A stretch of 64,000 bases of DNA from an uncultured Pseudomonadales bacterium (GTDB lineage: Bacteria; Patescibacteriota; Microgenomatia; UBA1400; PJMF01). The notes under the pieces were generated by a model. It was not told the DNA's origin. It saw only the letters and a list, made by a program, of their open reading frames with translations, and searched no databases. The position numbers were made by a program, and so were the translations under genes. Each line of letters opens with the position of its first letter. Position 1 is the first letter of the stretch. Below, piece after piece: positions 6,728-33,421 of this stretch. The stretch spans positions 2,025 through 66,024 of the forward strand of contig CAZYRN010000003.1 in assembly GCA_964650185.1 (NCBI GenBank), read 5' to 3'.

Positions 6728-8902
6728 ATGGAGATACCTGCCCTAATTCCTTTGTCTGCCGCTGATGGCTATGCTCGATCAGAAATAGGCGAGAGCGCTT
6801 TCCTGTTACACCAGGCTGCAAAACTGAAAGTGCCAGTCGCTGATTCTGTGATTATTACCCAAGCGGCCTTAGAAAAGATTGCTAGTCAGGGTAATTTTGC
6901 CAAACAACTGGAAAAAGCACTCCTTTCTTTTTCATTTAAGTCAGATCAACTGCCAGCCGAACTGGAAAAAATCAAAAGACAAATCCGGCAATTTCATCTG
7001 CCAGCTCAATTGACTGCTCCAATTATCAATTGGTATCATCTCCAGCCAACTTTTGTTAGTGTTAGCACAGATTACAAAACTGATCACCAGCATCCGCTCA
7101 AGATTGAAAATATCAAGGGTGAAGCTAATTTAATTGAGAGCATCCTAGCCTTGTGGTCTGAACAGCTCCAGTTTGATCCTAAACTAAAACAGCTCAAACT
7201 TTATGCCGAGCCCATGCTGCTGCAGCGACAAGGACAACCGGAAATATCTGGTTACGTGGAAACTCGATCTGACTTAAGTAAAACTAAAGCTTATGTTTAC
7301 AGTGTGTGGGGAGTCTATCAGCCTTACCATCCTGAAATCATGGCCGATGAGGTGGTGGTCGACATTCGTACTAATCAAGTGGTGCAGCGCAAAAATCAGC
7401 TTCAGTACCTGAGCTTAGAAAGACGAACTGATCATCTTCAAGAAAAAGCCTTGCTTTACTACAAACAAGGCGAGCTCAGCATGACAGATGAGATTGCACT
7501 CGATCTAGCCAGCTCTGCTGCCAGCCTGAAACGAAAATTTTTCACTGACTGCCGACTTTATTGGTCTTATCAACAGCATCACTTGGTCATCACTGGTTTT
7601 GAACGACTGGACCCTGCTCAAACTGGAGTAGTTGCTGAACCCAATATTCTCCTGACTGGCGATAGCTTGCTTTCTGGAATTGTGGGCGGCAGAGTGGTAA
7701 CAGATCTGACTCCAAAAAATAAAATTGCGACCGGTGACGTTTTGGTGGTCACTGAACTAACTTCTAAACACGCTTTGCTGCTGAAAAAAGTCTCTGCTAT
7801 TGTCTGTGATCGCGGCATTAAATCTACCCTACTGGTCAAGCAGTTGAAAGAATATCACTTACCAGCGGTCGTTAACACCATTCATGCCACTCATAAACTT
7901 AAACCTGGGCAGTACGTGATTGTGAATGCTAACTCTGGAAAAATTTTACAGTCTCCACAGCCTTTGGCCAGCGATCATTCATCTGCCAGCACCAATATTC
8001 CCACCATTACCAAGGTTTATATTTCTGCGGGCAATCCCCATAAGGCTGAAAGCTATGTCACCTCAGCAGTTGATGGGGTGGGGGTGTTGAGAAGTGAGTT
8101 TACTTTTGCCAGATTTGGCGAACACCCACTTCATTTAATTAAATCGTCACGTCGCCATCAGTTAAAACAAGAGCTGAAGCAAGTTATTACCACTTATCAG
8201 CAGACTAGGTTAAATCTGCCCGTCATTTACCGGACACAAAACTTTACTACTCAGGAGCTGAGCTATCTCACGCATGCCAGCCGTTACGAACCGACTGAAA
8301 CTAATCCTTACTTGGGATTTAGGGGCGGCATTAAGATGATTAGTGAGTTTGAGCTGTTTGATTTTGAGTTGGAAGTAATTAGTGAAGTCTTAACAGACAG
8401 CAAAGCACCGCTGGCCATCTTGCTCCCCTTCATTAGAACTCCAGGAGAAATGAGGTTGGTAATGAATCGAATTGCCAAGCATCAACTCCAGCATCACCCC
8501 CACTTTGCTGTTTATCTGCAACTAAATACACCTGAAAATGTCTTACAGCTAAAACATTATTTTATACCTGGTTTAGCTGGCGTTTCCGTCAATAGCCGCA
8601 GCCTACATGCGTTGATGCACGGCATCGACCCGGATAATCCCGATCTTTACCGTCAATACGCTTACAACCTGCAGTTGATGGAAGAGCTACTCATTAGAGT
8701 GCAGCGGGTGGTACACACCGTTGACTTCCAGCCTCAGGCTCTCCAAACTAGACCGAAAATGTTTTTACACTTAGAAGATCCGAGCTTGGAACTAGCGGAA
8801 ATTGCGGCTAAACTCAACTATGACGCGATTACCGTCAAACCAGAATTTGCCCCACGGGTGAAATCACGTATTAGAGAACTCGAAGAACGAAGATATGGCT
8901 AG
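6728..8902 (+). CDS. PEP-utilizing enzyme family protein (PEP synthase / pyruvate-phosphate-dikinase-like), divergent
   Basis: Three-domain layout: an N-terminal PEP/pyruvate-binding ATP-grasp-like region, a central mobile-domain-like segment (VLVVTELT...KKVSAIVCDRG...LPAVV), and a C-terminal PEP-utilizing TIM-barrel (DGVGVLRSEF, NPYLGFRGG). The internal ATG at 6728 was chosen because the upstream extension from 6605 is non-homologous. The protein lies directly upstream of eno and gpmI. Confidence 0.65.
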   Translation: MEIPALIPLSAADGYARSEIGESAFLLHQAAKLKVPVADSVIITQAALEKIASQGNFAKQLEKALLSFSFKSDQLPAELEKIKRQIRQFHLPAQLTAPIINWYHLQPTFVSVSTDYKTDHQHPLKIENIKGEANLIESILALWSEQLQFDPKLKQLKLYAEPMLLQRQGQPEISGYVETRSDLSKTKAYVYSVWGVYQPYHPEIMADEVVVDIRTNQVVQRKNQLQYLSLERRTDHLQEKALLYYKQGELSMTDEIALDLASSAASLKRKFFTDCRLYWSYQQHHLVITGFERLDPAQTGVVAEPNILLTGDSLLSGIVGGRVVTDLTPKNKIATGDVLVVTELTSKHALLLKKVSAIVCDRGIKSTLLVKQLKEYHLPAVVNTIHATHKLKPGQYVIVNANSGKILQSPQPLASDHSSASTNIPTITKVYISAGNPHKAESYVTSAVDGVGVLRSEFTFARFGEHPLHLIKSSRRHQLKQELKQVITTYQQTRLNLPVIYRTQNFTTQELSYLTHASRYEPTETNPYLGFRGGIKMISEFELFDFELEVISEVLTDSKAPLAILLPFIRTPGEMRLVMNRIAKHQLQHHPHFAVYLQLNTPENVLQLKHYFIPGLAGVSVNSRSLHALMHGIDPDNPDLYRQYAYNLQLMEELLIRVQRVVHTVDFQPQALQTRPKMFLHLEDPSLELAEIAAKLNYDAITVKPEFAPRVKSRIRELEERRYG

Positions 8903-10226
8903 TATTCAAGCAATTCAAGCTAGAGAAATTCTAAACTCGCAGGGGTTGCCCACGATTGAGTGCAATTTGTGGCTGGATACTGGTTATTTTGTCAGCACCA
9001 GCGTCCCCACCAGTAATAATCCAGGCAAAAATGAAGCGATTGAGCTACACGACAATCAACCTGAACGGATGGTGGGGAGAGGTGTGCTGGAAGCGGTTAA
9101 TAATATTAATAACATTATTGCCCCTGCCTTAGTTGGCCATGATCCCACCCAGCAAACCACTGCCGACCAACTCATGATCGATCTAGACGGTACCGCCAAT
9201 AAGGAAAAATTGGGTGCCAATGCTATCTTGGCTGTTTCGCAAGCAGTTTTAAAAGCTGGTGCAGTTAGTGTGGGGATGTCGCTTTATTACTACCTGCAGC
9301 AAAAATACCAGCTGACTGACTCTCTCAGGATCCCCACCGTCATCTACAGCATGCTTAATGGCGGTGCTCACGGAGCGCAAAACCTTGATCTGAAGGACTT
9401 TTCCATTATTCCTGCCAGCAACTTAGACTATCCCACTTCACTCAATATGGCGGTTAATTTTTTCCATAAACTGGAAGAGGTGTTGATAACTAAGGAAGCG
9501 ATTCACTGCGTTGGTAAAGCCGGCGGTTTTGCGCCAAATTTATATTCCAACACTGACGCGCTGCATATTTTATTGGAAACTTCTAAAGCCACTCCTTATA
9601 CCTTTACTCAGGATCTCTTTTTTGGCCTAGATGCTTCAGCTTTTAATTTTGTTTCAGAAAGCAAGTATAAACTTAAAGACAGAGCTCAGCCTTATACCGC
9701 TGATGAACTATTTACTTACTATCAGAATCTGCGTAACTCACATCAGGTGACCTACTTTGAAGATCCATTTAGCGAAGATGACTGGAAAGCTTGGCAAAAA
9801 ATTACGGCAGAATTGGGACCAACCACTAATATTGTCGGTGATAGCCTGTTAGTGACCAGTCAGGCCAAAGTTGCCGAAGCTATTGAGAAAAAAGCCTGCA
9901 ATGGCATCTCCATTAAGCCCAATCAAGCCGGCAGTATCAGCGAAACTATTGGCGTCATTAAACAAGCTCAAGATGCGGGCTGGAAAGTGACTATCTCTCA
10001 TCGCAGTGGTGAGACAAATGATACTTTCCTGGCTGATCTAGCCGTCGGAGTAGGGGCAGATTTTGCCAAGTTTGGCGCACCTAATCGAGGCGAAAGAGTG
10101 GCTAAGTACAATCGCTTACTAGAAATTCAGGCTGAGCTGGAACAGTTGACGGCCGTCCAGCCCGCCGACATTGTAACTGATCAAGTCAATCCTACGACTG
10201 ATCAAACCACAGCTGCAACCAGCTAG
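8895..10226 (+). CDS. eno: Enolase (phosphopyruvate hydratase)
   Basis: Enolase signature SHRSGETNDTFLADLAV, the IKPNQAGSISE loop and an N-terminal barrel domain. 8-nt overlap with the upstream gene. Confidence 0.92.
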   Translation: MASIQAIQAREILNSQGLPTIECNLWLDTGYFVSTSVPTSNNPGKNEAIELHDNQPERMVGRGVLEAVNNINNIIAPALVGHDPTQQTTADQLMIDLDGTANKEKLGANAILAVSQAVLKAGAVSVGMSLYYYLQQKYQLTDSLRIPTVIYSMLNGGAHGAQNLDLKDFSIIPASNLDYPTSLNMAVNFFHKLEEVLITKEAIHCVGKAGGFAPNLYSNTDALHILLETSKATPYTFTQDLFFGLDASAFNFVSESKYKLKDRAQPYTADELFTYYQNLRNSHQVTYFEDPFSEDDWKAWQKITAELGPTTNIVGDSLLVTSQAKVAEAIEKKACNGISIKPNQAGSISETIGVIKQAQDAGWKVTISHRSGETNDTFLADLAVGVGADFAKFGAPNRGERVAKYNRLLEIQAELEQLTAVQPADIVTDQVNPTTDQTTAATS

Positions 10227-10261
10227 TGTTACCATGATTGAAATGATTTAGAATAGAGAAC

Positions 10262-11980
10262 ATGACTGATCAAATAATGGACCAAACTCAGCCCAACCCC
10301 ACCTCTCAGCCCAACCTTAGCTCTCAACCTTTCACTGAGACACATCCCCGCAACAGCTATCAAGGCATTAAACCAGTGGTCCTGCTGATTCTAGATGGCT
10401 GGGGCATTGGTCCCAACAATGCCGGCAATGCCATTACTCAAGCCCACACACCTAACATGGATAAATACTGGATCAGTTTTCCCCATACTCAGCTAGCTGC
10501 CAGCGGTGAAGCAGTTGGTTTGCCGCGCGGTGAGGATGGTAATACAGAGACTGGTCACCTCAATATTGGAGCTGGCCATATCGTTTACCAAGACTTACCC
10601 AGAATTAACATGTCCATTGCTGATGGCTCTTTTTTTAATAACCAAGCCCTCTTAAATGCGGTCCAGCATGTCAAACAAAATAACTCGGTGTTGCACCTGA
10701 TGGGCTTAATCGGCGCGGGCGGAGTTCATTCCAATATTGAACATCTCTATGCCTTGCTTAATTTTGCCAAAAAGAACAACTTAGAAAAAGTTTATATTCA
10801 TGGCTTTACCGATGGCCGAGACTCGCCGCCTACGGCAGGGGTTAATTACATCCAGCAGTTGCAGGAAAGATGCAAGCAGCTAGGAATAGGCCGCATCGCC
10901 ACACTCATGGGTCGTTACTATGGCATGGATCGTGACAAGCGCTGGGAAAGAATTGAAAAAGCCTACAACGCTCTCACCATTGGGGCAGCCGCCTGTACTC
11001 AAGATCCCATCGCAGCTTTACAAGAGCAGTACAGCCAAAATATCACTGACGAGTTTATTGAACCAATTGCCGTTTGTGATGAATCAGGCCAGCCACAAAC
11101 TATTCAGGATAATGATGCTGTCATCTTCTTTAACTATCGAATTGATCGGCCGCGGGAGCTGACCAGAGCCTTCGTTCAGCCTAATTTTGAAGAGGGCATT
11201 AAGCACCAAGCTTTTGACCCTTATACCGAAAAGTATGAGAAAACCAACATTCAGCCTCAAGTTCACATCTCCACTTTTCAGCGGCAAAAAATTATTAACA
11301 ATCTGTATTTTGTCACCATGACCAGATATGAAGAAGGTTTGCCAACTGATGTGGCTTTTCCGCCACAGTTTGTTAAAAACCCAATTGGCAAAGTTTTGGC
11401 CACTCATGGCATTAAACAATTGCGGATAACAGAGACTGAAAAAGAACGGTTTGTCACTTACTACATGAACGGCCAGATTGAAGAGCTTTTTCCAGGCGAA
11501 GATCGTGCCATCTTACCCTCCAAGGGAGTCAAATCTTATGATGAGGCACCTGAGATGAGCGCTCGAGAAATTACCGATCAAATGTTGGACCGGTTGTTTA
11601 AATATGACTATGACGTGGTCATTGCCAACATTTGCAATGGTGATATGGTGGGTCACACCGGCAACCTAGAAGCTGCCATCAAGGCTTGCGAAGTGGTGGA
11701 TGAAGTAGTAGGCAGAATTGTTGATGCCGTCTCTGCTCATGGCGGCATAGTCCTGATCACAGCTGATCATGGTAATGTTGAAGAAATGATTGATACTGAA
11801 ACCGGCCAAGTCGACACTGAACACTCCACTTATCCCGTGCCATTTATCGTCGTTGGTCCTCAATATGCTGGTCAGCCAGTCCAACTGCCGACGGGCATCT
11901 TGGCAGATATTGCACCAACTATGCTACACTTAATGGGTTTGCCCAAGCCTGATACTATGACGGGCCGGGCGTTAATTTAG
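10262..11980 (+). CDS. gpmI: 2,3-bisphosphoglycerate-independent phosphoglycerate mutase
   Basis: Typical iPGM N-terminus (VVLLILDGWGIG), metal/phospho-serine region, and C-terminal ITADHGN motif. Confidence 0.92.
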   Translation: MTDQIMDQTQPNPTSQPNLSSQPFTETHPRNSYQGIKPVVLLILDGWGIGPNNAGNAITQAHTPNMDKYWISFPHTQLAASGEAVGLPRGEDGNTETGHLNIGAGHIVYQDLPRINMSIADGSFFNNQALLNAVQHVKQNNSVLHLMGLIGAGGVHSNIEHLYALLNFAKKNNLEKVYIHGFTDGRDSPPTAGVNYIQQLQERCKQLGIGRIATLMGRYYGMDRDKRWERIEKAYNALTIGAAACTQDPIAALQEQYSQNITDEFIEPIAVCDESGQPQTIQDNDAVIFFNYRIDRPRELTRAFVQPNFEEGIKHQAFDPYTEKYEKTNIQPQVHISTFQRQKIINNLYFVTMTRYEEGLPTDVAFPPQFVKNPIGKVLATHGIKQLRITETEKERFVTYYMNGQIEELFPGEDRAILPSKGVKSYDEAPEMSAREITDQMLDRLFKYDYDVVIANICNGDMVGHTGNLEAAIKACEVVDEVVGRIVDAVSAHGGIVLITADHGNVEEMIDTETGQVDTEHSTYPVPFIVVGPQYAGQPVQLPTGILADIAPTMLHLMGLPKPDTMTGRALI

Positions 11981-12824: not shown

Positions 12825-12845
12825 TTCGGGAAGTTTACGCCCGAA
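12825..12845. promoter_or_regulatory. Perfect inverted repeat TTCGGG-N9-CCCGAA 28 nt upstream of the lexA start (candidate operator or 5'-UTR hairpin)
   Basis: 6-bp perfect inverted-repeat arms seen directly. Position fits a LexA autoregulatory box, but the motif matches no LexA-box consensus known to me. Confidence 0.3.
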
Positions 12846-12873: not shown

Positions 12874-13494
12874 GTGGCGGTAACTCTCTACAAACGGCAA
12901 CGGCAAATTTTAGATTTTATTGCTCAGTATATTCAGAGCAATGGTTATGCGCCCACCCTACAGGAAATTGCGACAGCAATTGGCGTTTCTTCTTTAGCAA
13001 CTGTTCATGAACATCTCCAAGCTTTAGAGCGGAAGAAAGTGATCCGCCGCTTTGATGGTCAAGTGAGAGGCATTGAAGTTGTTGATCGAACTTTCCTTAA
13101 TTCTGATGAAGGCATTGATGTCCCCATCATGGGTTTTATCGCGGCCGGCAAGCCAATTGAGCCTTATCAGGATCCCGATGCTTCTTTTAAAGTCTCACCA
13201 GAAATGATTTCAGGTAAAAAACGCGCATACGTCTTGCAAGTTAAAGGTCAGTCAATGATCGAGGATCATATTGATGACGGCGACTACGTGGTCATTGAGG
13301 AAACTCAAGAAGTCAGTGATGGCGATATCGTGGTAGCTCTGTTGGATAATGGGCTAGCTACTTTAAAGCGCTACTACAAAGAGGTGACACGAGTCAGACT
13401 TGAACCAGCTAACTCCAACATGAGCCCCATCTATGCCGTCAACGTGCAGATTCAGGGTAGAGTAGTGGGGCTGATTCGGAAGTTTAAGTATTAA
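12874..13494 (+). CDS. lexA: LexA repressor (S24 peptidase)
   Basis: N-terminal winged HTH. Ala-Gly cleavage-site region (FIAAGKPIEP). Catalytic Ser in the GQSM motif and Lys in LATLKR. GTG start with an AAGGA RBS. Confidence 0.88.
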   Translation: MAVTLYKRQRQILDFIAQYIQSNGYAPTLQEIATAIGVSSLATVHEHLQALERKKVIRRFDGQVRGIEVVDRTFLNSDEGIDVPIMGFIAAGKPIEPYQDPDASFKVSPEMISGKKRAYVLQVKGQSMIEDHIDDGDYVVIEETQEVSDGDIVVALLDNGLATLKRYYKEVTRVRLEPANSNMSPIYAVNVQIQGRVVGLIRKFKY

Positions 13495-13627: not shown

Positions 13628-14212
13628 TTATTTCTTACTCTTTAATTCTTTTTCTTGGTATTGTTGCAACTGATTAATTTGGCATCTTAACAAATATAGA
13701 TAGTCAGACAAGCGGTTAAGAAATTTTAAAATCACTGGTGAGACAGTGGTTACTTCACTTAACTTAAAACCAACTCTTTCCGCTCGCCGCGCTACTGTCC
13801 GCGCCACATCAAAATATCCACCCAGCACCGTACCGCCAGGAAACAAAAACTGCCGGTGCCAATCATCAGCCAACTGCTCTTGTAGCACGTCAGCCTTGGC
13901 TTCTAAATCTGCCAAATCAGCTTCCTGATATTTTTTGCCAGGGTATTGAGCTACTTCCGCACTAATTTCATATAACTGCTGCTGAATTTTTTCTAAATCA
14001 GCCCTCATGGCTGGAGCGGAAAACTTTTCTGTCGCCGCCTTGGCCAAATCAGCCTCTTTTTCTCTCAACTCAGCCACAATTAAACCCAGCCAAGAACTCA
14101 ACTCATCCAGCCCACCTATAAACTCCATCACCAGGCTATGTTTAGGCACGCGCTTGCCATTCGCCAAGCTGGTCTGACCTTGGTCACCGGTTTTAGTTGA
14201 GATAGAGATCAT
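13628..14212 (-). CDS. PduO-type ATP:cob(I)alamin adenosyltransferase-family protein
   Basis: N-terminal ISTKTGDQGQTSLANGKRVPK (compare the PduO/MMAB motif TKTGDxGxTSLxxGxRxxK) and the helical-bundle remainder. ATGA start/stop overlap with the upstream CofE-like gene. Confidence 0.7.
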   Translation of the reverse strand: MISISTKTGDQGQTSLANGKRVPKHSLVMEFIGGLDELSSWLGLIVAELREKEADLAKAATEKFSAPAMRADLEKIQQQLYEISAEVAQYPGKKYQEADLADLEAKADVLQEQLADDWHRQFLFPGGTVLGGYFDVARTVARRAERVGFKLSEVTTVSPVILKFLNRLSDYLYLLRCQINQLQQYQEKELKSKK

Positions 14213-14997
14213 TTCTTAGTCTCCCAAGGAGCTGCTAACAACATCGGTCCGTAAACATCATCTTTCATCTTGATCTGCAGCTCGTTAATTTCTTTTTGAG
14301 TGGTAGCGCGATTTTGAAACTGCACCATTTTTGAATCTTGAATCAGGCAAAGTGGCTGAGCTTCGTCCGTTTCACCCATTTCCAAGACTGCCGCTACTGC
14401 TAAAGCTTCCGCCACTGCAACTTGAGTCATCTGCATCTGGTGACCAAATAAATCAGCTTGACCAATCTTATTATTCAGCGCCTTAAAACCACAATGACCC
14501 AAGCTGGTGCCAATCACACCCCACTTGAGAGGAAAAGTTCGACTGTCAGTAATCACCACCCCGACTTCTTTAACTCCAAACTCTTTTCTTAAAAATTGCC
14601 AGATCTGACGTGCGGACCGATAGGGATTTTCCGGCAGCAAAATGTAGTGACCATTGGCATTTGACTCATCAACACCGGCATTGACCGCCACCGTGCTGTG
14701 TTTGACAGTAATCATGATCTGGTACTGCGAGTGCGAAGCATCGATATAGGCTTCAGCCTCCTGCTTAGCCAGCAGTTGTTTTTCTTCTTTAGTGCCTGTC
14801 TGGATGGGCACCAGCCGGCCTTCGCAGATGGCAACTACCTTAGAAGTGACCGCCAGAACGCTTTTCTCGGGCAATTCTCGGACAGAATCTCTAATTAAAG
14901 CCAATAAATCATAGCCTTCATGAATGACTGGCGTAGCAATGGGTGTAACTCTCATAACCCGAATTATAACGCCTTTAGCTGTATAATGAAGATTCAT
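14209..14997 (-). CDS. CofE-like F420-0:gamma-glutamyl ligase family protein
   Basis: PF01996-like motifs: SKVVAICEGR, VVITDSRTFPLKWGVIGTSLG, and a C-terminal DLFGHQMQMTQVAVAEALAVAAVLEMGETDEAQPLCLI. An alternative start at M15 (14955) is possible. Confidence 0.65.
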   Translation of the reverse strand: MNLHYTAKGVIIRVMRVTPIATPVIHEGYDLLALIRDSVRELPEKSVLAVTSKVVAICEGRLVPIQTGTKEEKQLLAKQEAEAYIDASHSQYQIMITVKHSTVAVNAGVDESNANGHYILLPENPYRSARQIWQFLRKEFGVKEVGVVITDSRTFPLKWGVIGTSLGHCGFKALNNKIGQADLFGHQMQMTQVAVAEALAVAAVLEMGETDEAQPLCLIQDSKMVQFQNRATTQKEINELQIKMKDDVYGPMLLAAPWETKK

Positions 14998-15025
14998 GCC
15001 TAAGTTACATTTCTTATAATTTCTA

Positions 15026-17407
15026 ATGCTTAAACTAAAATCTGCTTACCAGCCTACCGGCGATCAGCCCCAAGCAATTGAGGCTTTGACTGCTGGAGTC
15101 CAAAATGGCAATCCGCACCAGGTTTTACTAGGTGTGACGGGCTCAGGCAAGACATATTCGATCGCCAATGTCATTGAAAAAACGCAAAAACCGACTTTAG
15201 TTATCGCTCACAACAAAACTTTAGCAGCTCAGCTCTATCAAGAGTTTAGAGATTACTTTCCTAATAATGCGGTCAGTTACTTTGTTTCTTACTACGATTA
15301 CTACCAACCAGAGGCGTACATTCCCACCACTGATACCTATATCGAGAAGGAAACCGATATTAACGATGAGATTGATAAACTACGCCTGGCCGCTACCACC
15401 AACTTGCTGACTCGAGATGATGTGATAGTCGTGTCGTCTGTATCATGTATTTATAACTTGGGTTCACCGGTGCAGTATGGCAAGTATGTGCTGGAAATAG
15501 TCGAGGGGGAGTTGATCGGCAGGAAAGATTTACTGCTGAGGCTATCTCAGTTGCAATACGAAAACTCTGCAGCTGATTTACGGCGCGGTACTTATCGAGT
15601 CCGAGGCGATACGATTCAGCTCTGGCCAGCCTATGAAGACCGAGCACTGCGGATTGAAACTTTAGAAAATAAGATCACCCAAATCAAGTGGATTGATCCC
15701 GTCACTGGCAGCAATATTCCTCAACATCAGCTTGATCAATACGAGCAGCAGCAGCGGGCATTCACCATCTACCCCGCCAAGCACTACATGATTAACCCCA
15801 AAACTCAGGATCAGGCCTTGGCTGAGATCAAGCGTGATCTTGAGGTCAGGCTGAAGGAGTTGCAGGCAGAAAACAAAGTTTTTGAGGCTCATCGACTGCA
15901 GCAGCGAGTTAATTATGATATGGAGATGATTCGCGAGTTTGGCTTCGTCAATGGTATTGAGAACTACTCGAGGTATTTTGACGGTCGTCAAGCCAATGAT
16001 CCGCCTTTCTCATTACTGGATTATTTTCAGCATAATGCCCAAGAGTTTGGCCACGACTCATTTTTAACCATAATTGACGAAAGTCATATGACGATTCCGC
16101 AAATTAGAGGTATGTACGCTGGGGACCAGTCAAGAAAAAGTACCCTGGTAGATTACGGTTTCCGACTGCCCAGTGCTTTAGATAATCGGCCACTGCGTTT
16201 TGATGAGTTTTTAGCCAGAACCCCTCAAACGATTTATGTCTCCGCCACTCCTAAAGAATGGGAAATAGAACAAGCGAGAGGGAAAGTAGTGGAGCAGCTG
16301 GTGCGGCCAACTGGACTGCTTGACCCAGAAATTGAACTGCGGCCAACTCAAAGCCAGATTGAAGACTTAATTATTGAGATCATTAAGCGGAAGTTAATTG
16401 GCCAACGGGTGCTAGTAACCACTTTAACTAAAAAAATGGCTGAAGCCTTGACTGAGTACCTCAATGATCGGCACAAAATTGACCAGCTAGTCCAAAGTTT
16501 TATTGAGAAACAGCGCCAGCAGCAGGCACAGCTTGATCCAGAGCGGGTGATTAACGCTAACGAGATGCTGCCAGTGGGTGAGTTGGAAATTGGTAAGCTT
16601 GATCATCGCTACCAGACGCAGGCTGAGCTACCGCCAGAGATGCTGAGATACTTTGAGGCGGTGAATCGGGGAGAAGAGCAGGGAGAAGCCGTGGGTAATG
16701 CAAGTGAAGGCGCCGACCCAAGTGAAGCCACGGCTGAGTGGTATCCAAAAGTTGCCTACTTGCACGCGGATGTGGAAACTTTTGAGCGGTCGGACATCTT
16801 AGATGAGCTACGGCAGGGAGCATATGACGTGGTGGTGGGAATAAACTTGCTGCGGGAAGGACTAGACTTGCCCGAAGTGACGCTGGTGGCTATTTTAGAC
16901 GCAGATAAAGAGGGCTTTTTAAGATCACGCATCTCCTTAATTCAGACGATGGGGAGGGCGGCGCGACACGTCGAGGGGCAAGCGATTTTATACGCTGACA
17001 ATTTAACCGGCTCGATGCGGGAGGCGATCGCGGAAACCCAGCGCCGCCGCCTAGTTCAGCTCGAGTACAATCAACAACATGGCATTGATCCGCAAACAAT
17101 TGTGAAGCCAATTCGAGAACGACTGATTGAAAAAAAAGAAGAGACTGAAGACAGCACCACACTTACTAGAGGTTTTCGCTTCCAGGATCAGGGTCAAGCT
17201 ACCTATGGTCAGCCGCTGATGATTGACCTCGATGGTAAACAAATTGACCTGAACCAGGTTGATTTTGATGCCATGACCCCACCTGATTTGAAAAAGTTTT
17301 TGAAAAAAATCTCCCAGCGAATGCGTCAGGCTGCCGCTGAGATGGACTTTGAACTCGCTGCAGTCTTGCGAGATTGGATTAAAGCTCAGTCTGACTCAGC
17401 AAACTAA
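15026..17407 (+). CDS. uvrB: Excinuclease ABC subunit B, with a ~90-aa insertion
   Basis: Walker A GVTGSGKT, a YYDYYQPEAY beta-hairpin region, helicase motifs (GINLLREGLD, QTMGRAAR), and a C-terminal UVR domain. 793 aa against ~670 typical; the extra segment falls between LTEYL...H and KVAYLH. Confidence 0.92.
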   Translation: MLKLKSAYQPTGDQPQAIEALTAGVQNGNPHQVLLGVTGSGKTYSIANVIEKTQKPTLVIAHNKTLAAQLYQEFRDYFPNNAVSYFVSYYDYYQPEAYIPTTDTYIEKETDINDEIDKLRLAATTNLLTRDDVIVVSSVSCIYNLGSPVQYGKYVLEIVEGELIGRKDLLLRLSQLQYENSAADLRRGTYRVRGDTIQLWPAYEDRALRIETLENKITQIKWIDPVTGSNIPQHQLDQYEQQQRAFTIYPAKHYMINPKTQDQALAEIKRDLEVRLKELQAENKVFEAHRLQQRVNYDMEMIREFGFVNGIENYSRYFDGRQANDPPFSLLDYFQHNAQEFGHDSFLTIIDESHMTIPQIRGMYAGDQSRKSTLVDYGFRLPSALDNRPLRFDEFLARTPQTIYVSATPKEWEIEQARGKVVEQLVRPTGLLDPEIELRPTQSQIEDLIIEIIKRKLIGQRVLVTTLTKKMAEALTEYLNDRHKIDQLVQSFIEKQRQQQAQLDPERVINANEMLPVGELEIGKLDHRYQTQAELPPEMLRYFEAVNRGEEQGEAVGNASEGADPSEATAEWYPKVAYLHADVETFERSDILDELRQGAYDVVVGINLLREGLDLPEVTLVAILDADKEGFLRSRISLIQTMGRAARHVEGQAILYADNLTGSMREAIAETQRRRLVQLEYNQQHGIDPQTIVKPIRERLIEKKEETEDSTTLTRGFRFQDQGQATYGQPLMIDLDGKQIDLNQVDFDAMTPPDLKKFLKKISQRMRQAAAEMDFELAAVLRDWIKAQSDSAN

Positions 17408-21152: not shown

Positions 21153-23192
21153 ATGCTTAAGGACCTAATGATCGTCAATAATTTTCTGCCAAAAATACGC
21201 TCTCATCATCACTTGAGCTTAATCACTTTGCTTTTCACAGTTTTCACTCTGATAGTTATTTCCTTTTTCACGGATTTTCACGGAATTATTACAGGCTTAA
21301 GTAGTTTTCACGCATTTTCACAGAAACACTTTTCCTCAATAAGTTTAACAGCTCAAGCCCAAACTGAAACGCAGCCTAGTTCGGGGCTTTTCCAGACAAA
21401 TCTTACTACCACCGTCACTGTCAATGAAAATGGTCTGAGTCGAATTAAGCAAGATTTTGAAATAGTTAACCTCACGCCAACAAGTTATATCAGTCAATAC
21501 GGCTTAAAAATCAGCTCTAATCAGCTTAAAAATATCGTTGTCACCAGTGATGGTCAACTCATCGAACCAGAGATAAATTATCTTAATCCAAGCACAACTA
21601 GTGGTCCCGGACAAACCAGTATCGGCATTACTTTTGATGACAAAGTGGTAGGGGAAGGTAAGTCACGCCAATTTAGCATTTCCTATCTTCATCCAGATGC
21701 AGCTATTATTAGCGGCTCCGTGTTGGAAGTGTCGCTACCGCCTCAAGCCAACCCAGCAGACTACCAACAATATACCGTGCACTTGGTTACGCCTGCTCGT
21801 TTTGGGCCGCCGGTGAGAACTACCCCAGATCAGCATTCTTACACTACTCAAGACGATCAGGTAGTGACTACTTTTGAACAAAATGGCACAGCAGGGATTT
21901 TTGCGTTGTATGGCTCAGAACAAATTTTTGATCTGATGATAAATTATCACCTTGATAATGACACTAATAATCCTGGCATCTCTCAAATTGCCCTTGTCCC
22001 AGACACAGCATACCAGCGCGTTTATTATCACCAGCTAGATCCGCTCCCAGACCAAATGGAACTCGATCCAGACGGCAACTGGATTGCAACTTACCACCTG
22101 CCAGCGGGCAGTAAAACCACAGTAAAACTACAGGCAGCGGTCAAACTCAGTTTAGAACCAGCTGCTAACCTCCCCATAGCAGAACCAAACTCTACTCATC
22201 TGGCAGCTTTGCCATACTGGCCGGTAGATCAGGCGGAGATTAAAGAGTTGGCGGGTCAGCACCAAACTGCCGCCGCCATCAATGATTATGTGGTAAAAAC
22301 GCTCAGCTATAACACCCAGCGGGCGTTAAATAATCCCGAGCGAATGGGAGCGGCGGCGGCCCTCAATCAGCCCGACCAAGCAGTTTGTCAAGAATTTACC
22401 GATCTTTTTATCACCCTGGCTCGAGCTGCCAACATTCCGGCCCGCCGCATGACCGGCTATGCCTACACCCAAAACAGCGATCTGAGGCCACTGAGCTTAG
22501 TCGAGGATGTTCTACATGCTTGGCCAGAATACTATCATCAAGACTTAAAACAATGGGTGCCCATTGATCCCACCTGGGAAAATACCACTGGCGGCATTGA
22601 TTATTTCAGCCAAGTCGACTTAAGCCACATCGTCTTTGCTATCAATGGCCAGCACAGCGAGACTCCCTATCCCGCCGGTAGCTACAAGGCTGATGCGGCG
22701 GAAAAAACTGTTGAAGTTAATTTTGGTAGCAGCTTTCCTGAACTTAATGCCAGCGCCCTAACCACTTCCCAAGAACTGGTTCCCAGAAAAATCCTTGGCC
22801 TTAACATTCCGGGTCTTTACACACTCAAAATCACTAACCTATCTGGAGAAGCGGGTTACTATTTACCGATTGAGGTCAGCGCTCAACAAGTTCAAGTTGT
22901 TAAAACAAGAACTTCCGGCAATATCAAGGCATTGCTGCCTTTTCAAACGTTAGAAATTCCGTTACAGTTACAGGCCAGTTCAGGTTTCTTGCCCGAAAAG
23001 GATACAATAACAATTAGTATTAACCATGACAGTCAAACCTACCAAGTCACCAGCGGACCCAGACTCAGCGACTCCATCCCGCAGCCGTACCTCTTCATTG
23101 GCGTGGCTGCCATCCTGGTCGTCAGTACCCTCATCGCCGGGAGTGTACTGGTTTTTAGAAAACGACCAGGTTCTGTACGTCGGAAAAGCTAA
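21153..23192 (+). CDS. Transglutaminase-like (cysteine-protease fold) extracytoplasmic protein with membrane anchors at both ends
   Basis: N-terminal TM helix, large beta-rich ectodomain, and a transglutaminase core (CQEFTDLFITLARAANIPARRMTGYA ... HAWPEYY ... WVPIDPT) with Cys, His and Asp all present. C-terminal TM helix plus basic tail (RKRPGSVRRKS). Confidence 0.7.
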   Translation: MLKDLMIVNNFLPKIRSHHHLSLITLLFTVFTLIVISFFTDFHGIITGLSSFHAFSQKHFSSISLTAQAQTETQPSSGLFQTNLTTTVTVNENGLSRIKQDFEIVNLTPTSYISQYGLKISSNQLKNIVVTSDGQLIEPEINYLNPSTTSGPGQTSIGITFDDKVVGEGKSRQFSISYLHPDAAIISGSVLEVSLPPQANPADYQQYTVHLVTPARFGPPVRTTPDQHSYTTQDDQVVTTFEQNGTAGIFALYGSEQIFDLMINYHLDNDTNNPGISQIALVPDTAYQRVYYHQLDPLPDQMELDPDGNWIATYHLPAGSKTTVKLQAAVKLSLEPAANLPIAEPNSTHLAALPYWPVDQAEIKELAGQHQTAAAINDYVVKTLSYNTQRALNNPERMGAAAALNQPDQAVCQEFTDLFITLARAANIPARRMTGYAYTQNSDLRPLSLVEDVLHAWPEYYHQDLKQWVPIDPTWENTTGGIDYFSQVDLSHIVFAINGQHSETPYPAGSYKADAAEKTVEVNFGSSFPELNASALTTSQELVPRKILGLNIPGLYTLKITNLSGEAGYYLPIEVSAQQVQVVKTRTSGNIKALLPFQTLEIPLQLQASSGFLPEKDTITISINHDSQTYQVTSGPRLSDSIPQPYLFIGVAAILVVSTLIAGSVLVFRKRPGSVRRKS

Positions 23193-24429
23193 AGATTTAA
23201 AAAAGCGTCTCCGCCAGTACACCCAATTAAAGCGTCTGCCTACCAAGATTAAACGGATGGTTCACGAAGCAGCCACTGTCAAATGGCAGGAGTTGGAGAG
23301 TGAGTTTGAAGCACTGCTGATCGAAGCAGAGCTGATTCGCCTCCATCAGCCCAACTATAATTCATTGCTGAAAGATGATAAAAGTCCCATCTATCTGCAG
23401 CTCACCAATGAGATCTATCCTAGATTACTGACTGTCCGCAAGCGAGACTTAGATCACCGCCAACTTTCAGGCACAATCTTAGGTCCGTTTCCCAGCGCGT
23501 ATCGGCTGCGCGAGGTCTTAAAAATTGTCAGGAAGATTTTTCCCTGGTGCAACCAAGCAGGGCAGAGCAGTCGGCAAGAACTCGTCGGCAGTACAGCCTG
23601 TTTTTATTATCATTTAGATCAGTGCCCAGGCGCATGTGTGGGTGCGATCTCACCAGCTGATTATCGAGCTCAACTCCAACAATTGGTTTTATTTTTACGA
23701 GGTAAGAAAAAAACCGTTATCACCAATTTGGAACAAGAATTAAAATCCGCTGCCGAACAAGAAAAATATGAAATAGCAGCCGAGCTGCGTGACCGAATTC
23801 AATTAATTAAATCGGTCACGACTCAGCAGTATCAACTCAAACCATCATTGGTGCTGCCTCAACTAACAGGCCAATATCGCGAACAAGCTCTGTTGCATCT
23901 ACGCAAACTACTGTCCACCTATCTTTATCTGCCAAAAACTTATCCCTTATCGAGAGTTGAAGGCTATGATGTCAGCAATACTTCCGGCCAACTAGCTAGT
24001 GTCTCCATGGTGACGTTTGTCAATGGTCAGCCGGCTAAAGAACATTACCGGCTGTTTAACATCCGCACTCTTGATACCCCCAATGACTTTCAGATGCTAC
24101 AGGAAGCCGTTCTTAGGCGGCAAAATCACCCAGAATGGGGTGAGCCCGATCTACTTGTTATTGATGGCGGCAAAGGCCAGCTACGGGCCGCTCTGCAGGG
24201 CTGGTATTGGCCAGCACCAGTCATTAGCATTGCCAAAAATCCAGATCGAATTATTCTGCCCACCCAAATTGAGCGCCCCGAATCCGGCCGGCTTAAAATT
24301 AAATACCAGATCATTAGACTACCGGCCAACCACCCTACGCTGCACTTGATCCAACACATTCGTGATGAATCACACCGTTTTTCCAAAAAACAACATACTA
24401 GCCGTCGCTTGAAAAAGATGTTTAAATAA
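23098..24429 (+). CDS. uvrC: Excinuclease ABC subunit C (truncated form lacking the C-terminal HhH domain)
   Basis: GIY-YIG motif PGVYWFLENDQVLYVGKAKDLKKRLRQY, a Cys-rich UvrC middle region, and the RNase-H-like endonuclease region (IDGGKGQL, HIRDESHRF). The start is ambiguous: TTG at 23098 was chosen; GTG at 23140 and ATG at 23026 are alternatives. The N-terminus overlaps the upstream gene by 53-167 nt. Ends right after the endonuclease domain (~445 aa against ~600). Confidence 0.75.
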   Translation: MAWLPSWSSVPSSPGVYWFLENDQVLYVGKAKDLKKRLRQYTQLKRLPTKIKRMVHEAATVKWQELESEFEALLIEAELIRLHQPNYNSLLKDDKSPIYLQLTNEIYPRLLTVRKRDLDHRQLSGTILGPFPSAYRLREVLKIVRKIFPWCNQAGQSSRQELVGSTACFYYHLDQCPGACVGAISPADYRAQLQQLVLFLRGKKKTVITNLEQELKSAAEQEKYEIAAELRDRIQLIKSVTTQQYQLKPSLVLPQLTGQYREQALLHLRKLLSTYLYLPKTYPLSRVEGYDVSNTSGQLASVSMVTFVNGQPAKEHYRLFNIRTLDTPNDFQMLQEAVLRRQNHPEWGEPDLLVIDGGKGQLRAALQGWYWPAPVISIAKNPDRIILPTQIERPESGRLKIKYQIIRLPANHPTLHLIQHIRDESHRFSKKQHTSRRLKKMFK

Positions 24430-24433
24430 CAGT

Positions 24434-24799
24434 ATGGGATTTCTCAAAGCTGTTATAAACACCGGTCTCACCTTATTTATCTTGGCTTATTTTCTGCCTA
24501 CCGTCAGCTATATGGACTGGTCGACACTGATTATTGCGGCCATCGTCTTTACCCTGGTTCATAAAATTATTAAGCCAATTCTTAAGTTGCTCTTTTTACC
24601 CATTAACATCATCACCCTCGGCTTCTTCTCACTCGTTCTCAACGTGATTTTACTCTGGTTGGTCACTTATCTTGTACCCGGCTTTCGCATCGCTCCCATG
24701 GTAATTCTAGGAGTTGAGTTTAACCAATTTTTCTCTTTGCTCATCATCTCGGCTTTAATTGGTTTTATTCAGTCATTTTTGGGTATCTTTATCAAGTAA
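24434..24799 (+). CDS. DUF360 / YvlD-like (holin superfamily IV-like) small membrane protein
   Basis: 121 aa with 4 TM helices. Family-like motif LVTYLVPGFRI. Confidence 0.45.
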   Translation: MGFLKAVINTGLTLFILAYFLPTVSYMDWSTLIIAAIVFTLVHKIIKPILKLLFLPINIITLGFFSLVLNVILLWLVTYLVPGFRIAPMVILGVEFNQFFSLLIISALIGFIQSFLGIFIK

Positions 24800-24855
24800 A
24801 ACGCTCGGCCCAGCTGCCTGTACTTGTAGGGGTAGGATTTAGTATAATAATCCTC

Positions 24856-25800
24856 ATGAGAAAATTTTTGGCCAGCCTTCTAGTCTTGTTAAGTTTAACC
24901 ATAGCCGTTTCCACTCCTGTCGTGGCTCAGACTAATCTGCGGGTCAGTCCTTCACCAAGTCTATTAGATGAAGAGGCAACTGAGTCTGCAGATGCTACCG
25001 CCGAAGCTGAGCTAGCCACCGCCTCTGCTGAAACTGAGCAACGCATTCAAGAGAAAAAAGCTCGCGATATCACCGAACCGACTGTGGAGCAGAAAAGTAA
25101 ATTAGTCAGATATCTCGAGGAAAATCCTGTTGAAAATCCCTCTGTTACCAACGCCTTAGCGAGAGCCATTCGCAGTGCCGTTGCTGAAGGAGTCCCACCC
25201 AACGTCATCGTCTTAGTTCTACTGTTCCCCTTAGTCTCATCTTTTATTGCCGCCTCCAGACACGTCATTGGTCTCAGAGGTTTCGGCATTTACATTCCAG
25301 CCGTCTTGTCCGTAGCTTTAGTCTCAACCGGCATAATCGAAGGCACCGCTATCTTTTTAGCCATTGCCTTAGTCGCTTTACCAGCCAAGCGCATCTTGAT
25401 GAAATCTAGACTGCCATACTTGCCGCGGACAGCCATCTTATTGTGGTTTGTCTCTTTAGCAATTTTGGCCTTACTCTTGGCCGCACCACTTTTAGATCTG
25501 GTCTCACTGATGAGCGTCAACATTTTCCCCATCTTAATTTTGGTATTGTTGGCTGAAAACTTCTTAGACGCTCAAGTCAGAACTAAACCTAGTGACGCCA
25601 TGGCGCTGACACTAGAAACTTTAGGCTTAGCTTTCTTATCTGGCTTAATCTTAAAATGGGAAACACTGCAAAAGTTCGCCTTAATCGAACCAGAGCTACT
25701 CATTATTGCCATCCTGTTGTTTAACCTCATCATCGGCAAATTTGTCGGCTTGAGGTTTTCTGAGTACTTCCGCTTCAGAACGATGATGGAAGAGGAATAA
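24856..25800 (+). CDS. Signal-peptide 7-TM membrane protein (first gene of the 7TM / ATP-grasp / QEGLA cassette)
   Basis: Cleavable-looking signal peptide, a ~100-aa acidic ectodomain, then seven hydrophobic helices. Positioned immediately upstream of the RimK-like and QEGLA genes. Confidence 0.6.
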   Translation: MRKFLASLLVLLSLTIAVSTPVVAQTNLRVSPSPSLLDEEATESADATAEAELATASAETEQRIQEKKARDITEPTVEQKSKLVRYLEENPVENPSVTNALARAIRSAVAEGVPPNVIVLVLLFPLVSSFIAASRHVIGLRGFGIYIPAVLSVALVSTGIIEGTAIFLAIALVALPAKRILMKSRLPYLPRTAILLWFVSLAILALLLAAPLLDLVSLMSVNIFPILILVLLAENFLDAQVRTKPSDAMALTLETLGLAFLSGLILKWETLQKFALIEPELLIIAILLFNLIIGKFVGLRFSEYFRFRTMMEEE

Positions 25801-25837
25801 TTATCCCATCAAGAGCAGCAATAACTAGGCAACTATT

Positions 25838-27127
25838 ATGGCAATTAAACCCTCCCAAATTCTCGGGCACAACGGACGCAATCGCTACACTTCCATGAAT
25901 AGTCGCGAAGCTAAAAAATATGGTTTTTCTAAGTTAAGAACCAAAGAACTGCTGCGCCAGCATAATATTCCCACTGCCGAGTTGTATCATGTTTTTGAAA
26001 CTCCCGAAGATCTCAATCTAGTTTCTTGGGAAACTTTGCCCGTGCCTTTTGTGATTAAGCCTGCCAGTGGCAGTGCTGGTAAAGGGATTTGGATTATTAA
26101 AAAGAAACTCAAAGATCAATCGGTTTGGGTCAATGAACGCCAGGAACACCTAACTAAAGCCGATCTGGAACTGCATGTCTTAAACATTCTTGATGGTGAG
26201 TTTAGTACCTGGGGCAGTCAGCATCGAGCGTTGGTGGAAGAGATGATTCCTCCCCATCCTAAATTGGCTAAGATTTCTTATAAAGGCACCCCCGATATTC
26301 GGATTATCATTTTTAACTCCATTCCAGTCATGGCTATGGCACGGATTCCAACTGAAGAATCTCAAGGTCGAGCCAACCTGGATCAAGGCGCAATTGGTCT
26401 CGGCATCGATTTGGCCACCGGCATCACCATTCATGGAGTGAGAGGCAAGAAAACTGTTATTTCTAAACTGCCTGGGAAAAAAGGCCGAAAAGTGACCGGA
26501 ATAAAAATTCCCATGTGGAATAAAGCTCTGGAAATTGCAGTTAAAGCCGCCAACGCTGCTGGCTACACTTTTATGGGAGCTGATCTTTTTATTCATGAGG
26601 AAAAAGGACCAATGGTGGTGGAGCTGAATGGTTTTCCAGGTTTGTCAATTCAATTGGCTAATGATGCCGGTTTGAAAGCACGCCTAAAAAGGGTTGAGGA
26701 TGTTGAGGTGCTGAATGCTAAACATGGGGTCAAAATTGCTCAAGCTTTATTTGCCAAGATCTTTATTGATGAAAATACTGTGGAAGAAGGTCTGCAAATT
26801 TTATCCTACCGGCCAACCATTGAACTCTATGATGATCAAAACAAGCCCCACCAAGTTGAAGCATTGGTCAATACGAGCCGTTATCGATCTGCCATCAGCC
26901 AAGAACTAGCTGAAGAGCTTGGTCATTTTGATATTGAAGACTTGCTGTGGCGGCAAACTGAAATTGTTGAGGGCAATGTGCCAGTGGTGGAGATTCAAAC
27001 CAAGATCGGTGACCGACAAGTGACGACTGCGATGCTGGTCATTAAAAGACTGAACCGCACCCAACACAAAGTAGAGTTGGGCAGAAGAGATATTCAAGGC
27101 TTCTTAATTGGCGAAGGAGCACAATGA
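25838..27127 (+). CDS. RimK-like ATP-grasp ligase (alpha-L-glutamate ligase-related) with a ~140-aa C-terminal extension
   Basis: ATP-grasp motifs (FVIKPASGSAGKGIWII, EEMIPP, VELNGFPG). The C-terminal extension (residues ~290-429) has no clear family. Confidence 0.7.
   Translation: MAIKPSQILGHNGRNRYTSMNSREAKKYGFSKLRTKELLRQHNIPTAELYHVFETPEDLNLVSWETLPVPFVIKPASGSAGKGIWIIKKKLKDQSVWVNERQEHLTKADLELHVLNILDGEFSTWGSQHRALVEEMIPPHPKLAKISYKGTPDIRIIIFNSIPVMAMARIPTEESQGRANLDQGAIGLGIDLATGITIHGVRGKKTVISKLPGKKGRKVTGIKIPMWNKALEIAVKAANAAGYTFMGADLFIHEEKGPMVVELNGFPGLSIQLANDAGLKARLKRVEDVEVLNAKHGVKIAQALFAKIFIDENTVEEGLQILSYRPTIELYDDQNKPHQVEALVNTSRYRSAISQELAEELGHFDIEDLLWRQTEIVEGNVPVVEIQTKIGDRQVTTAMLVIKRLNRTQHKVELGRRDIQGFLIGEGAQ

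Positions 27128-31921: not shown

Positions 31922-33421
<1,500 letters not shown>

Follow-up and report, generated by a model that had tools for sequence, protein, structure and literature searches.

The window, the 64-kb stretch of DNA that was analysed, carries two minus-strand genes between a divergent uvrB gene and a convergent lexA gene (Table 1). One encodes a gamma-glutamyl ligase of the CofE superfamily and the other a single-domain PduO-type ATP:cob(I)alamin adenosyltransferase. A sequence-only reading of this DNA had reported that the two genes overlap by ATGA, which was confirmed by the open reading frame list and by the junction sequence (...aag aaA TGA tct...), in which the ligase stop codon TGA occupies 14211-14209 and the pduO start codon ATG occupies 14212-14210, with 4 bases common to the two genes. 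The overlap implies that the ligase and pduO genes would be co-transcribed in the source organism, in which they are probably also translationally coupled. The true ligase start is probably the ATG at 14955-14953 (248 aa) and not the ATG at 14997, because in all 31 aligned homologues the first residue is the one that corresponds to M15 (query coverage of 93-95%). In the divergent intergenic region that is bounded by this probable start, a consensus promoter scan found sites that were no more numerous than in shuffled sequence; promoters in this region are putative.

Table 1. Features of the ligase-pduO locus and its two edges.
Feature	Position	Strand	Remarks
lexA, convergent neighbour, other block edge	12874..13494	plus	Pfam LexA_DNA_bind and Peptidase_S24
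PduO-type ATP:cob(I)alamin adenosyltransferase gene, single-domain, MMAB/YvqK-like	13628..14212	minus	194 aa ORF
ATGA stop/start overlap of the ligase and pduO genes	14209..14212	minus	Read from the sequence
CofE-superfamily gamma-glutamyl ligase gene, probably FolC2-like	14209..14997	minus	262 aa ORF
Divergent intergenic region, ligase (probable start) to uvrB	14956..15025		TATAAT-like hexamers on both strands
uvrB, divergent neighbour, one block edge	15026..17407	plus	Pfam UvrB, UvrB_inter and Helicase_C

The ligase had been placed in the CofE family (PF01996), and this was borne out by a full-length match to the Pfam F420_ligase profile (E=3.4e-39; 135 bits, cut-off of 25; profile positions 2-218 of 218); the protein is a member of PF01996/COG1478, the CofE superfamily. 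The top NCBIfam model was TIGR04132 (FolC2), named 'putative folate metabolism gamma-glutamate ligase', which scored 240.2 bits and led the next model by 93 bits; its curated cut-off of 350 was not reached. The CofE models scored 123-147 bits, with 147.3 bits for TIGR01916 (CofE), below its curated cut-off of 180.65, and NF009809 gave 134.9 bits, short of its cut-off of 274. The ligase is a probable FolC2-like protein and a candidate folylpolyglutamate synthase; strict FolC2 membership is not established at 240 bits against 350. Homologues of 48-56% identity have database names that include 'putative folate metabolism gamma-glutamate ligase' and 'dihydrofolate synthase / folylpolyglutamate synthase'. 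Many homologue entries are named 'coenzyme F420-0:L-glutamate ligase', which is an automatic superfamily-level label.

Residues 17-220 of the ligase aligned with the CofE structures from A. fulgidus (2PHN and 7ULD, E=1e-22), including the D-x-S-N, I-T-D-S/T and M-G-E segments (AGIDASN, ITDT and MGE in 2PHN), and identity to archaeal CofE proteins was 30-33%. In an alignment of 32 sequences, S112, N113, D151, S152 and E209 were invariant and D110 was nearly so. We take the three segments to hold the metal and nucleotide ligands in the A. fulgidus enzyme, in which D109, D150, T151 and E208 are presumably the metal- and nucleotide-site residues that match the conserved ligase positions.

The second gene had been assigned to the PduO/MMAB-type adenosyltransferases on the basis of a TKTGDxGxTSL signature. 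The signature is present at residues 6-16 (TKTGDQGQTSL) and the assignment was right. The protein matched PF01923 (Pfam Cob_adeno_trans; E=8.1e-43, 146.9 bits, cut-off of 24) and scored 141.1 bits against TIGR00636 (PduO_Nterm), above the curated equivalog-domain cut-off of 108.45. When 34 clade members were aligned (33 relatives and the window protein), the ATP-loop residues T6, K7, T8, G9, D10 and G12 were invariant, as were the NRLSD motif and residues F122, P125, G126, G127, R138, R142, E145 and R146, with R143 nearly so. F-x2-PGG and R-x3-R-R-x-E are the corrin-site and active-site motifs of the family, and the latter presumably maps to R186/R190/R191/E193 of human MMAB. Solved corrinoid adenosyltransferases, including YvqK (1RTY), LrPduO (3CI1) and human MMAB (2IDX), were matched at E=2.5e-24 to 1e-16, and their F-x2-PGG and R-x3-R-R-x-E segments aligned with those of the window protein. 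A 13-residue insertion at approximately residues 59-71 (EKEADLAKAATEK) was absent from all 33 aligned relatives. The gene is predicted to encode an ordinary corrinoid adenosyltransferase. PduO is a salvage and activation enzyme, for which imported cobalamin suffices and which does not imply corrin biosynthesis.

Neither a B12-dependent enzyme or B12 transporter nor a folate-dependent enzyme or folate transporter was found in the 64-kb window, the approximately 6.5 kb upstream or the 10 kb downstream. The seven closest loci contained no B12 client enzyme or uptake system, and there was no cobalamin riboswitch in the window, its flanks or these seven loci. The cofC, cofD and fbiC/cofGH genes were absent from the window and from the DNA fetched beyond its ends. 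That additional DNA carried only translation, tRNA-synthetase and recombinase genes. An ATP-grasp gene is present at 25.8 kb, as had been stated when the window was said to encode two amide-ligase-type systems, but it sits in an unrelated cluster of 7TM-transglutaminase, ATP-grasp and MATCAP-like peptidase genes. A search of all loci for ribonucleotide reductase active-site motifs revealed a class I NrdA-type gene in one Patescibacterium (L069) and an AdoCbl-dependent RTPR gene, 1 kb from a PduO gene, in contig L099. The latter was ruled out as evidence on the CPR, since a homologue search identified L099 as Lactobacillus. An AdoCbl-dependent ribonucleotide reductase has been reported in CPR genomes (PMC7427843); literature searches on CPR and cobalamin, adenosyltransferases or ribonucleotide reductases otherwise brought up nothing relevant.

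The genomic context of the ligase was surveyed in loci from 71 Patescibacteria species, with 10 kb flanks on each side. In 17 of the 71 species a DHFR gene was located directly downstream of the ligase orthologue on the same strand, often overlapping it, and genes encoding dUTPase, dCMP deaminase and ThyA were located within three genes of the orthologue in 13, 13 and 11 loci, respectively; at least one of these four genes was near the ligase in 19 species. The ThyA neighbours passed TIGR03284 and the DHFR neighbours passed the Pfam threshold. Ligase orthologues from the folate clusters scored 216-248 bits against TIGR04132, like the window protein; they are more distant (42-50% identity) and belong outside the window's own clade. 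No folate-pathway genes adjoin the ligase in the window itself. A different arrangement was seen in six more distant species, in which a MATCAP-like peptidase gene precedes the ligase gene and an unannotated gene of approximately 450-540 aa follows it; a Pfam scan of the unannotated neighbours in these MATCAP-type loci gave no matches.

Canonical FolC fills the ligase slot in two relatives that retain the whole synteny of the window, with scores of 353 and 355 bits against TIGR01499 (cut-off of 162.65). In the first relative (L088/L089) the folC gene is on the minus strand; in the second (L178/L179) it is on the plus strand upstream of a PIG-L gene, the same layout as that of the CofE-like gene in L026/L028/L034. 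Because the two FolC proteins share only 30% identity, the replacements appear to have been independent. There was no CofE-like gene within the loci fetched from these two relatives (10 kb and 5 kb flanks), and no FolC gene was found within 10 kb in any of the 71 CofE-like loci.

In 26 of the 71 species a PduO gene was located no more than 10 kb from the ligase, in every case inside a UvrB...LexA block with the order uvrA-uvrB, ligase, variable genes, pduO, lexA and the glycolysis genes iPGM-enolase, and in all 26 loci it was downstream of the ligase on the same strand. UvrB was within 400 nt of the ligase in 22 of the 71 loci and within 10 kb in 28; lexA was downstream of PduO in 25, each time with the block. 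In the 43 species that showed no trace of the block, PduO was absent from the 10 kb on either side of the ligase, and it was near the ligase in none of the 19 folate-cluster loci. As a negative control, 80 non-CPR PduO loci were taken from among the matches listed in a metagenome scan with the PduO alignment (generic PduO genes, 33-42% identity); none had a CofE-like or FolC gene within 10 kb.

Spacing within the block varied. The ligase and pduO genes overlap or nearly touch in about eight species: the ATGA junction recurs in L007 and L009, and in L006, L008, L012, L013 and L015 the gap is 2-16 nt. In 19 of the 26 block species between one and three unrelated genes intervene, mostly with the opposite orientation. 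These intervening genes are heterogeneous (NUDIX, PIG-L or FkbM genes, or an oppositely oriented FemAB-like GNAT gene), and no third conserved partner gene was found between the ligase and pduO. The FolC gene of L088 is co-oriented with uvrB rather than with pduO, and in L176 PduO adjoins UvrB and the ligase is absent. The pairing is conserved, and tight, in the closest relatives; it forms part of one lineage-specific syntenic block, and Patescibacteria as a whole do not conserve it as a module. The juxtaposition of the ligase and pduO is most likely an ordinary matter of gene order inherited within one clade, with no shared pathway. The tight spacing in about eight species and the landing of FolC near PduO on two occasions leave room for some selected linkage. 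A conserved candidate LexA dyad (TTCGGG-N9-CCCGAA) is located upstream of lexA and was absent upstream of uvrB/ligase and upstream of uvrA, a distribution that led to the rejection of SOS regulation as the reason for the pairing.

The two genes probably encode separate enzymes of conventional kinds, each completing a cofactor for a Patescibacterium (Microgenomates-type) that scavenges vitamins, and are neighbours by gene order. The ligase would be a nucleotide- and metal-dependent FolC2-type enzyme that attaches glutamate to imported folate through gamma linkages; the resultant polyglutamylation would keep folate in the cell and render it well suited as a substrate of thymidylate synthase and the other enzymes of one-carbon metabolism. 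The ligase would take the place of FolC, which the source genome probably lacks. PduO would convert imported reduced cobalamin and ATP into adenosylcobalamin, for which the most likely client would be an AdoCbl-dependent ribonucleotide reductase. In the source organism expression of the two genes would be joined by co-transcription and by translational coupling through the ATGA overlap. The substrates of both enzymes, the nucleotide used and the AdoCbl client are putative assignments.

It is unlikely that the ligase and pduO form a functional vitamin-salvage operon that feeds DNA-precursor synthesis (dTMP through ThyA, dNTPs through an AdoCbl-dependent ribonucleotide reductase) and whose position between uvrB and lexA has been favoured by selection, for instance because it allows co-regulation with DNA repair. 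The ATGA overlaps or 2-16 nt gaps in about eight species, the downstream, same-strand placement of PduO in 26 of 26 loci and the presence of DNA-repair genes as neighbours fit such an operon, as does the refilling of the ligase slot by FolC, for which chance insertion is hard to invoke given two events, two orientations and 30% identity. However, the unrelated and mostly opposite-strand genes between the pair in 19 of 26 species indicate that co-transcription is not required, the L088 and L176 arrangements break the unit, the LexA dyad is missing from uvrB/ligase and uvrA, and the glycolysis genes in the block point to plain synteny; outside the clade, the ligase goes with folA/thyA and never with pduO. 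Quite improbable, too, is the idea that the uvrB-lexA slot is a selected 'DNA-precursor cofactor island', in which a folate ligase of either fold, CofE-like or, following two independent replacements, canonical FolC, is kept beside the B12 adenosyltransferase. If it were true, thymidylate synthesis and AdoCbl-dependent ribonucleotide reduction would be provisioned together with nucleotide-excision repair, the pair would work as a genuine unit and selection on position would account for the in-situ replacements.

The sequence-only reading had suggested that the pair may have some other substrate, for instance in the salvage or activation of a nucleotide or cofactor. Such a substrate would be both adenosylated and glutamylated, and the pathway would be new. 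The ligase does fall under the cut-offs of both the CofE and the FolC2 models, the window holds no B12- or folate-dependent enzyme, and the MATCAP-like neighbour in six distant species hints at other acceptors for some family members. Against this, a CofE homologue without F420 is explained by FolC2, the folate context of the orthologues and the in-situ FolC genes indicate a specific, conventional substrate, PduO scores above the cut-off of an equivalog-level model and has every family-invariant motif, and the two genes are unlinked outside one clade, with no third conserved partner and heterogeneous genes between them. A new substrate is very improbable. Scarcely credible, and with still less to recommend it, is the reading in which the ligase is a genuine CofE, synthesising F420 polyglutamate in a lineage whose F420 or deazaflavin salvage pathway has gone unrecognised. 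Clear PF01996 membership, 30-33% identity to archaeal CofE and the many F420-0 ligase names in the databases would favour it, but these names are automatic, the TIGR01916 score (147.3 against 180.65 bits) is well under the FolC2 model score, and the in-situ substitute is canonical FolC and not an F420 enzyme. Furthermore, the recurring annotated neighbours in the 71 species are folate/thymidylate or unrelated housekeeping genes, with no F420 gene among them.

The value of the reading as two conventional cofactor-finishing enzymes lies mainly in annotation, and no new pathway is revealed. The label 'coenzyme F420-0:L-glutamate ligase', carried by many Patescibacteria entries for this protein, wrongly suggests F420 metabolism in organisms that are almost certainly without F420. 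Renaming the clade as FolC2-type folylpolyglutamate synthases is supported by the occurrence of folA/thyA/dut clusters in 19 species and of canonical FolC in the ligase slot of two relatives. The range of FolC2, so far chlamydiae and a small number of intracellular bacteria, would then include much of the candidate phyla radiation. This reading fits the view that these episymbionts import vitamins and keep only the last 'trapping/activation' steps, here folate polyglutamylation and B12 adenosylation.

Among known systems, FolC2 is a CofE homologue that stands in for folylpolyglutamate synthase in Chlamydia. The Chlamydia trachomatis protein (CT611) complements an E. coli folC mutant, and the chlamydial folC2 gene clusters with folate genes (PMC1971073). 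The window ligase resembles it as a COG1478/PF01996 protein of a reduced-genome bacterium without F420, for which TIGR04132 is the best curated model, whose orthologues cluster with folA and thyA, and whose type is exchangeable in situ with canonical FolC. It differs in its score, 240 bits against a cut-off of 350, which points to a separate Patescibacteria clade, and in its location beside pduO and uvrB with no folate genes. The chlamydial gene belongs to de novo folate synthesis (folP/folK), whereas the source organism probably only salvages folate, so that polyglutamylation would be expected and not a dihydrofolate synthase role.

With CofE of A. fulgidus (2PHN/7ULD) the ligase shares a fold family and the conserved D-x-S-N, I-T-D-S/T and M-G-E segments, but it is below the TIGR01916 cut-off and has no F420 context, and the folate context and FolC replacement point to another acceptor. 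The window PduO protein is, like the solved PduO-type enzymes (3CI1, 1RTY and 2IDX), a single-domain protein of approximately 190 aa with the TKTGDxGxT, F-x2-PGG, R-x3-RR-x-E and NRLSD motifs; it differs in the 13-residue insertion and is without the C-terminal PduO DUF336 domain. As for YvqK and MMAB, its host would make no corrinoids and would have to import them. Finally, FolC (bifunctional dihydrofolate synthase / folylpolyglutamate synthase, Mur-ligase family, TIGR01499) is proposed to catalyse the same reaction as the window ligase and occupies the identical genomic slot in two relatives, but it has an unrelated fold (an ATP-dependent Mur ligase of 430-451 aa), which would make the two proteins functional analogues rather than homologues.

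At the junction of the two minus-strand genes (aag-aaA-TGA-tct), the four bases ATGA (14209-14212) serve both the stop of the CofE-like gene and the start of PduO, as the sequence-only reading had described. The family assignments made there were upheld: the first ORF covered the entire PF01996 profile (Pfam, E = 3.4e-39) and the second matched PF01923 (E = 8.1e-43), with the TKTGDxGxTSL signature at residues 6-16. Since the aligned homologues of the CofE-like protein start at the M15-equivalent residue in 31 of 31 cases, the true start is probably the ATG at 14955, not the first ATG of the ORF (14997); the spacer to the divergent uvrB gene is then 70 nt. A TATAAT hexamer was observed 8 nt upstream of ATG 14955 on the minus strand, and at this distance the leader might be very short or absent.

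Features of the window and of related loci (L numbers; own coordinates). Positions without a locus number refer to the window.
Feature	Position	Strand	Remarks
CofE-like ORF	14209..14997	-	262 aa; PF01996 (F420_ligase)
PduO-type ORF	13628..14212	-	194 aa; PF01923 (Cob_adeno_trans)
Transglutaminase-core protein	21153-23192		
7TM_transglut protein	24856-25800		
ATPgrasp_ST (PF14397)	25838-27127		'RimK-like ligase' of the sequence-only reading
MATCAP-like peptidase	27124-28083		Overlaps ATP-grasp stop
Canonical FolC in ligase slot	L088 8590-9945 (L088/L089)	-	Co-oriented with uvrB
Canonical FolC in ligase slot	L178 1019-2311 (L178/L179)	+	Upstream of PIG-L gene
Ligase-DHFR cluster	L017, L025, L027, L036, L039, L041, L042, L044, L046, L049, L051, L053, L055, L056, L058, L062, L076, around 10001-11400	same strand	DHFR copy divergent

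The best NCBIfam model for the CofE-like protein was the FolC2 family model TIGR04132 ('putative folate metabolism gamma-glutamate ligase', 240 bits), compared with only 123-147 bits for true CofE models; all of these scores are under the curated cut-offs. Because the catalytic-core segments common to the A. fulgidus CofE structures are conserved, the protein is predicted to be an active ligase. For the chlamydial CofE homologue CT611, De Crecy-Lagard et al. (PMC1971073) showed both clustering with folate genes and complementation of an E. coli folC mutant. Some automatic database names of homologues already imply a folylpolyglutamate synthase.

The CofE-like gene was surveyed in 71 Patescibacteria species by clustering the neighbours in 10-kb flanks. 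In 17 species the next same-strand gene after the ligase, often overlapping it, encoded dihydrofolate reductase (DHFR; Pfam DHFR_1/RibD_C). Three more enzymes recurred within three genes of the ligase: dUTPase (13 species, all among these 17), dCMP deaminase (13) and a thymidylate synthase passing TIGR03284 (11). A typical layout is thyA <> ligase-folA-dut, and the ligase-DHFR-dUTPase group with ThyA and dCMP deaminase alongside is a compact thymidylate-cycle cluster. Ligase orthologues from these clusters scored 216-248 bits against TIGR04132, like the window protein.

Two relatives with the whole window gene order carried a canonical FolC in precisely the position of the CofE-like gene, with TIGR01499 scores of 353 and 355 bits (cut-off 162.65). 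L026, L028 and L034 have a CofE-like gene in the same layout as the L178/L179 FolC. The two FolC proteins are in opposite orientations and, because they are only 30% identical, suggest two separate in-situ non-orthologous replacements. Such a swap for an unrelated enzyme whose function is known, at one and the same position, is a classic sign that the two are functionally equivalent. Together, folate neighbours and FolC replacement, two independent context results, identify folate as the predicted acceptor, and the CofE-like gene probably encodes a FolC2-type folylpolyglutamate synthase.

Other neighbours were also recorded. Six species are more remote (40-42% identity; L061 2-1896; L064-L067 and L075, around 8885-10747) and carry, one or two genes upstream of the CofE-like gene and in the same orientation, a gene for a MATCAP-like (PF08014) metallopeptidase, which might act as a partner that hydrolyses glutamate tails or might point to another acceptor. 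In the maps of L061, L066, L067 and L075 the CofE-like gene is followed by a gene of some 450-540 aa that has no annotation. A NUDIX hydrolase gene overlaps the CofE-like gene start in L001-L005 (7544-8011) and L022, and one directly follows the CofE-like gene in L011 (10786-11280); this neighbour had no specific NCBIfam assignment and matched dihydroneopterin triphosphate diphosphatase weakly.

Of the 71 species, 26 had a PduO gene no more than 10 kb from the ligase, in each case downstream of it and in the same orientation, and all 26 loci sit in a larger block, uvrA-uvrB / ligase / ... / pduO / lexA / iPGM-enolase; UvrB and LexA were within 10 kb in 28 and 25 species, respectively. The genes touch or overlap in seven species, the window and L086/L087 (L007 and L009 share the ATGA overlap, and the other five of the seven have gaps of 2-16 nt), but one to three unrelated genes, usually an opposite-strand FemAB-like GNAT and otherwise NUDIX, PIG-L or FkbM, separate them in 19, and PduO was absent within 10 kb in 45, with no trace of the block in 43 of these. 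PduO was near the ligase in none of 19 folate-cluster loci, adjoins UvrB at L176, where the ligase is absent, and had no CofE-like or FolC neighbour at any of the 80 non-CPR PduO loci among the matches listed. Since PduO lies near the ligase only inside the block, and often apart from it there, the pairing is lineage-specific synteny, in a block that also contains repair and glycolysis genes. The ATGA overlap is ordinary operon compaction inside an inherited gene order, and co-transcription in the window's subclade is probably a local, secondary state. Canonical FolC did, however, arrive twice at this one position next to PduO and UvrB, which leaves a small probability that the position was selected, with two cofactor-finishing steps co-provisioned for DNA-precursor synthesis.

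A perfect dyad, TTCGGG-N9-CCCGAA, occurs once in the window, at 12825-12845, and precedes the GTG start of lexA (12874) by 49 nt. At least 14 of 28 related species (including L006, L007, L009, L013-L015, L018, L021, L072 and L088) retain it 36-75 nt ahead of lexA; it matches neither the E. coli consensus nor that of the Cheo box and is a candidate LexA operator of the clade. The block was rejected as an SOS unit, since the dyad was not found upstream of uvrB/ligase or uvrA.

Close homologues of both proteins all came from Patescibacteria/CPR assemblies (labelled Woesebacteria, Pacebacteria, Microgenomates or Beckwithbacteria). Many TPA_asm MAG records, L007, L011, L013-L015 and L019-L021 among them, bear 'uncultured Pseudomonadales' or 'Gammaproteobacteria bacterium' in their titles despite clear Patescibacteria gene content and synteny, and these labels should not be trusted. 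The window encodes glycolysis genes, uvrA, uvrB, uvrC, lexA, clpB, lon, tRNA-modification genes and 16S rRNA. The 64 kb contain neither folate-dependent nor B12-dependent enzymes, and vitamin transporters and riboswitches are likewise missing; about 6.5 kb upstream and 10 kb downstream added none of these. The complete 16S rRNA gene (31921-33419) is solitary, followed in the window by clpB (34443) and tRNA-Ile (37043) without 23S or 5S; the rRNA genes appear to be unlinked. The second amide-ligase system proposed earlier at 25.8 kb does include an ATP-grasp gene, but this belongs to an ATP-grasp/peptidase cluster (21153-28083), parts of which are syntenic in L086/L087, that looks unrelated to the pair.

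The PduO protein passed the equivalog-domain model TIGR00636 (141 bits, cut-off 108) and matched solved corrinoid adenosyltransferases (E about 1e-24 to 1e-15). Invariant or nearly so in 34 clade members were the ATP loop TKTGDxG, F122-x2-PGG, R138-x3-R142-R143-x-E145 and NRLSD, which correspond to the ATP site and the corrin site of LrPduO and MMAB. Its sole peculiarity is a 13-residue insertion, EKEADLAKAATEK (about residues 59-71), absent from 33 of 33 aligned clade members. By these matches the gene is predicted to encode a standard adenosyltransferase. Such an enzyme requires imported cobalamin, not corrin biosynthesis, and humans and B. subtilis are precedents. The unexpected substrate proposed for the pair is not needed.

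One published account (PMC7427843) reports AdoCbl-dependent ribonucleotide reductase in CPR genomes, a plausible client for PduO within CPR. The conventional PduO-client pairing is exemplified by a Lactobacillus contig (L099, 6836-9073 and 10001-10531), in which PduO lies 1 kb from this reductase. Within the known FolC2 kind, the CofE-like gene would be a new member from Patescibacteria; in practice this reading would correct the name 'F420 ligase', which is widespread in CPR genomes.
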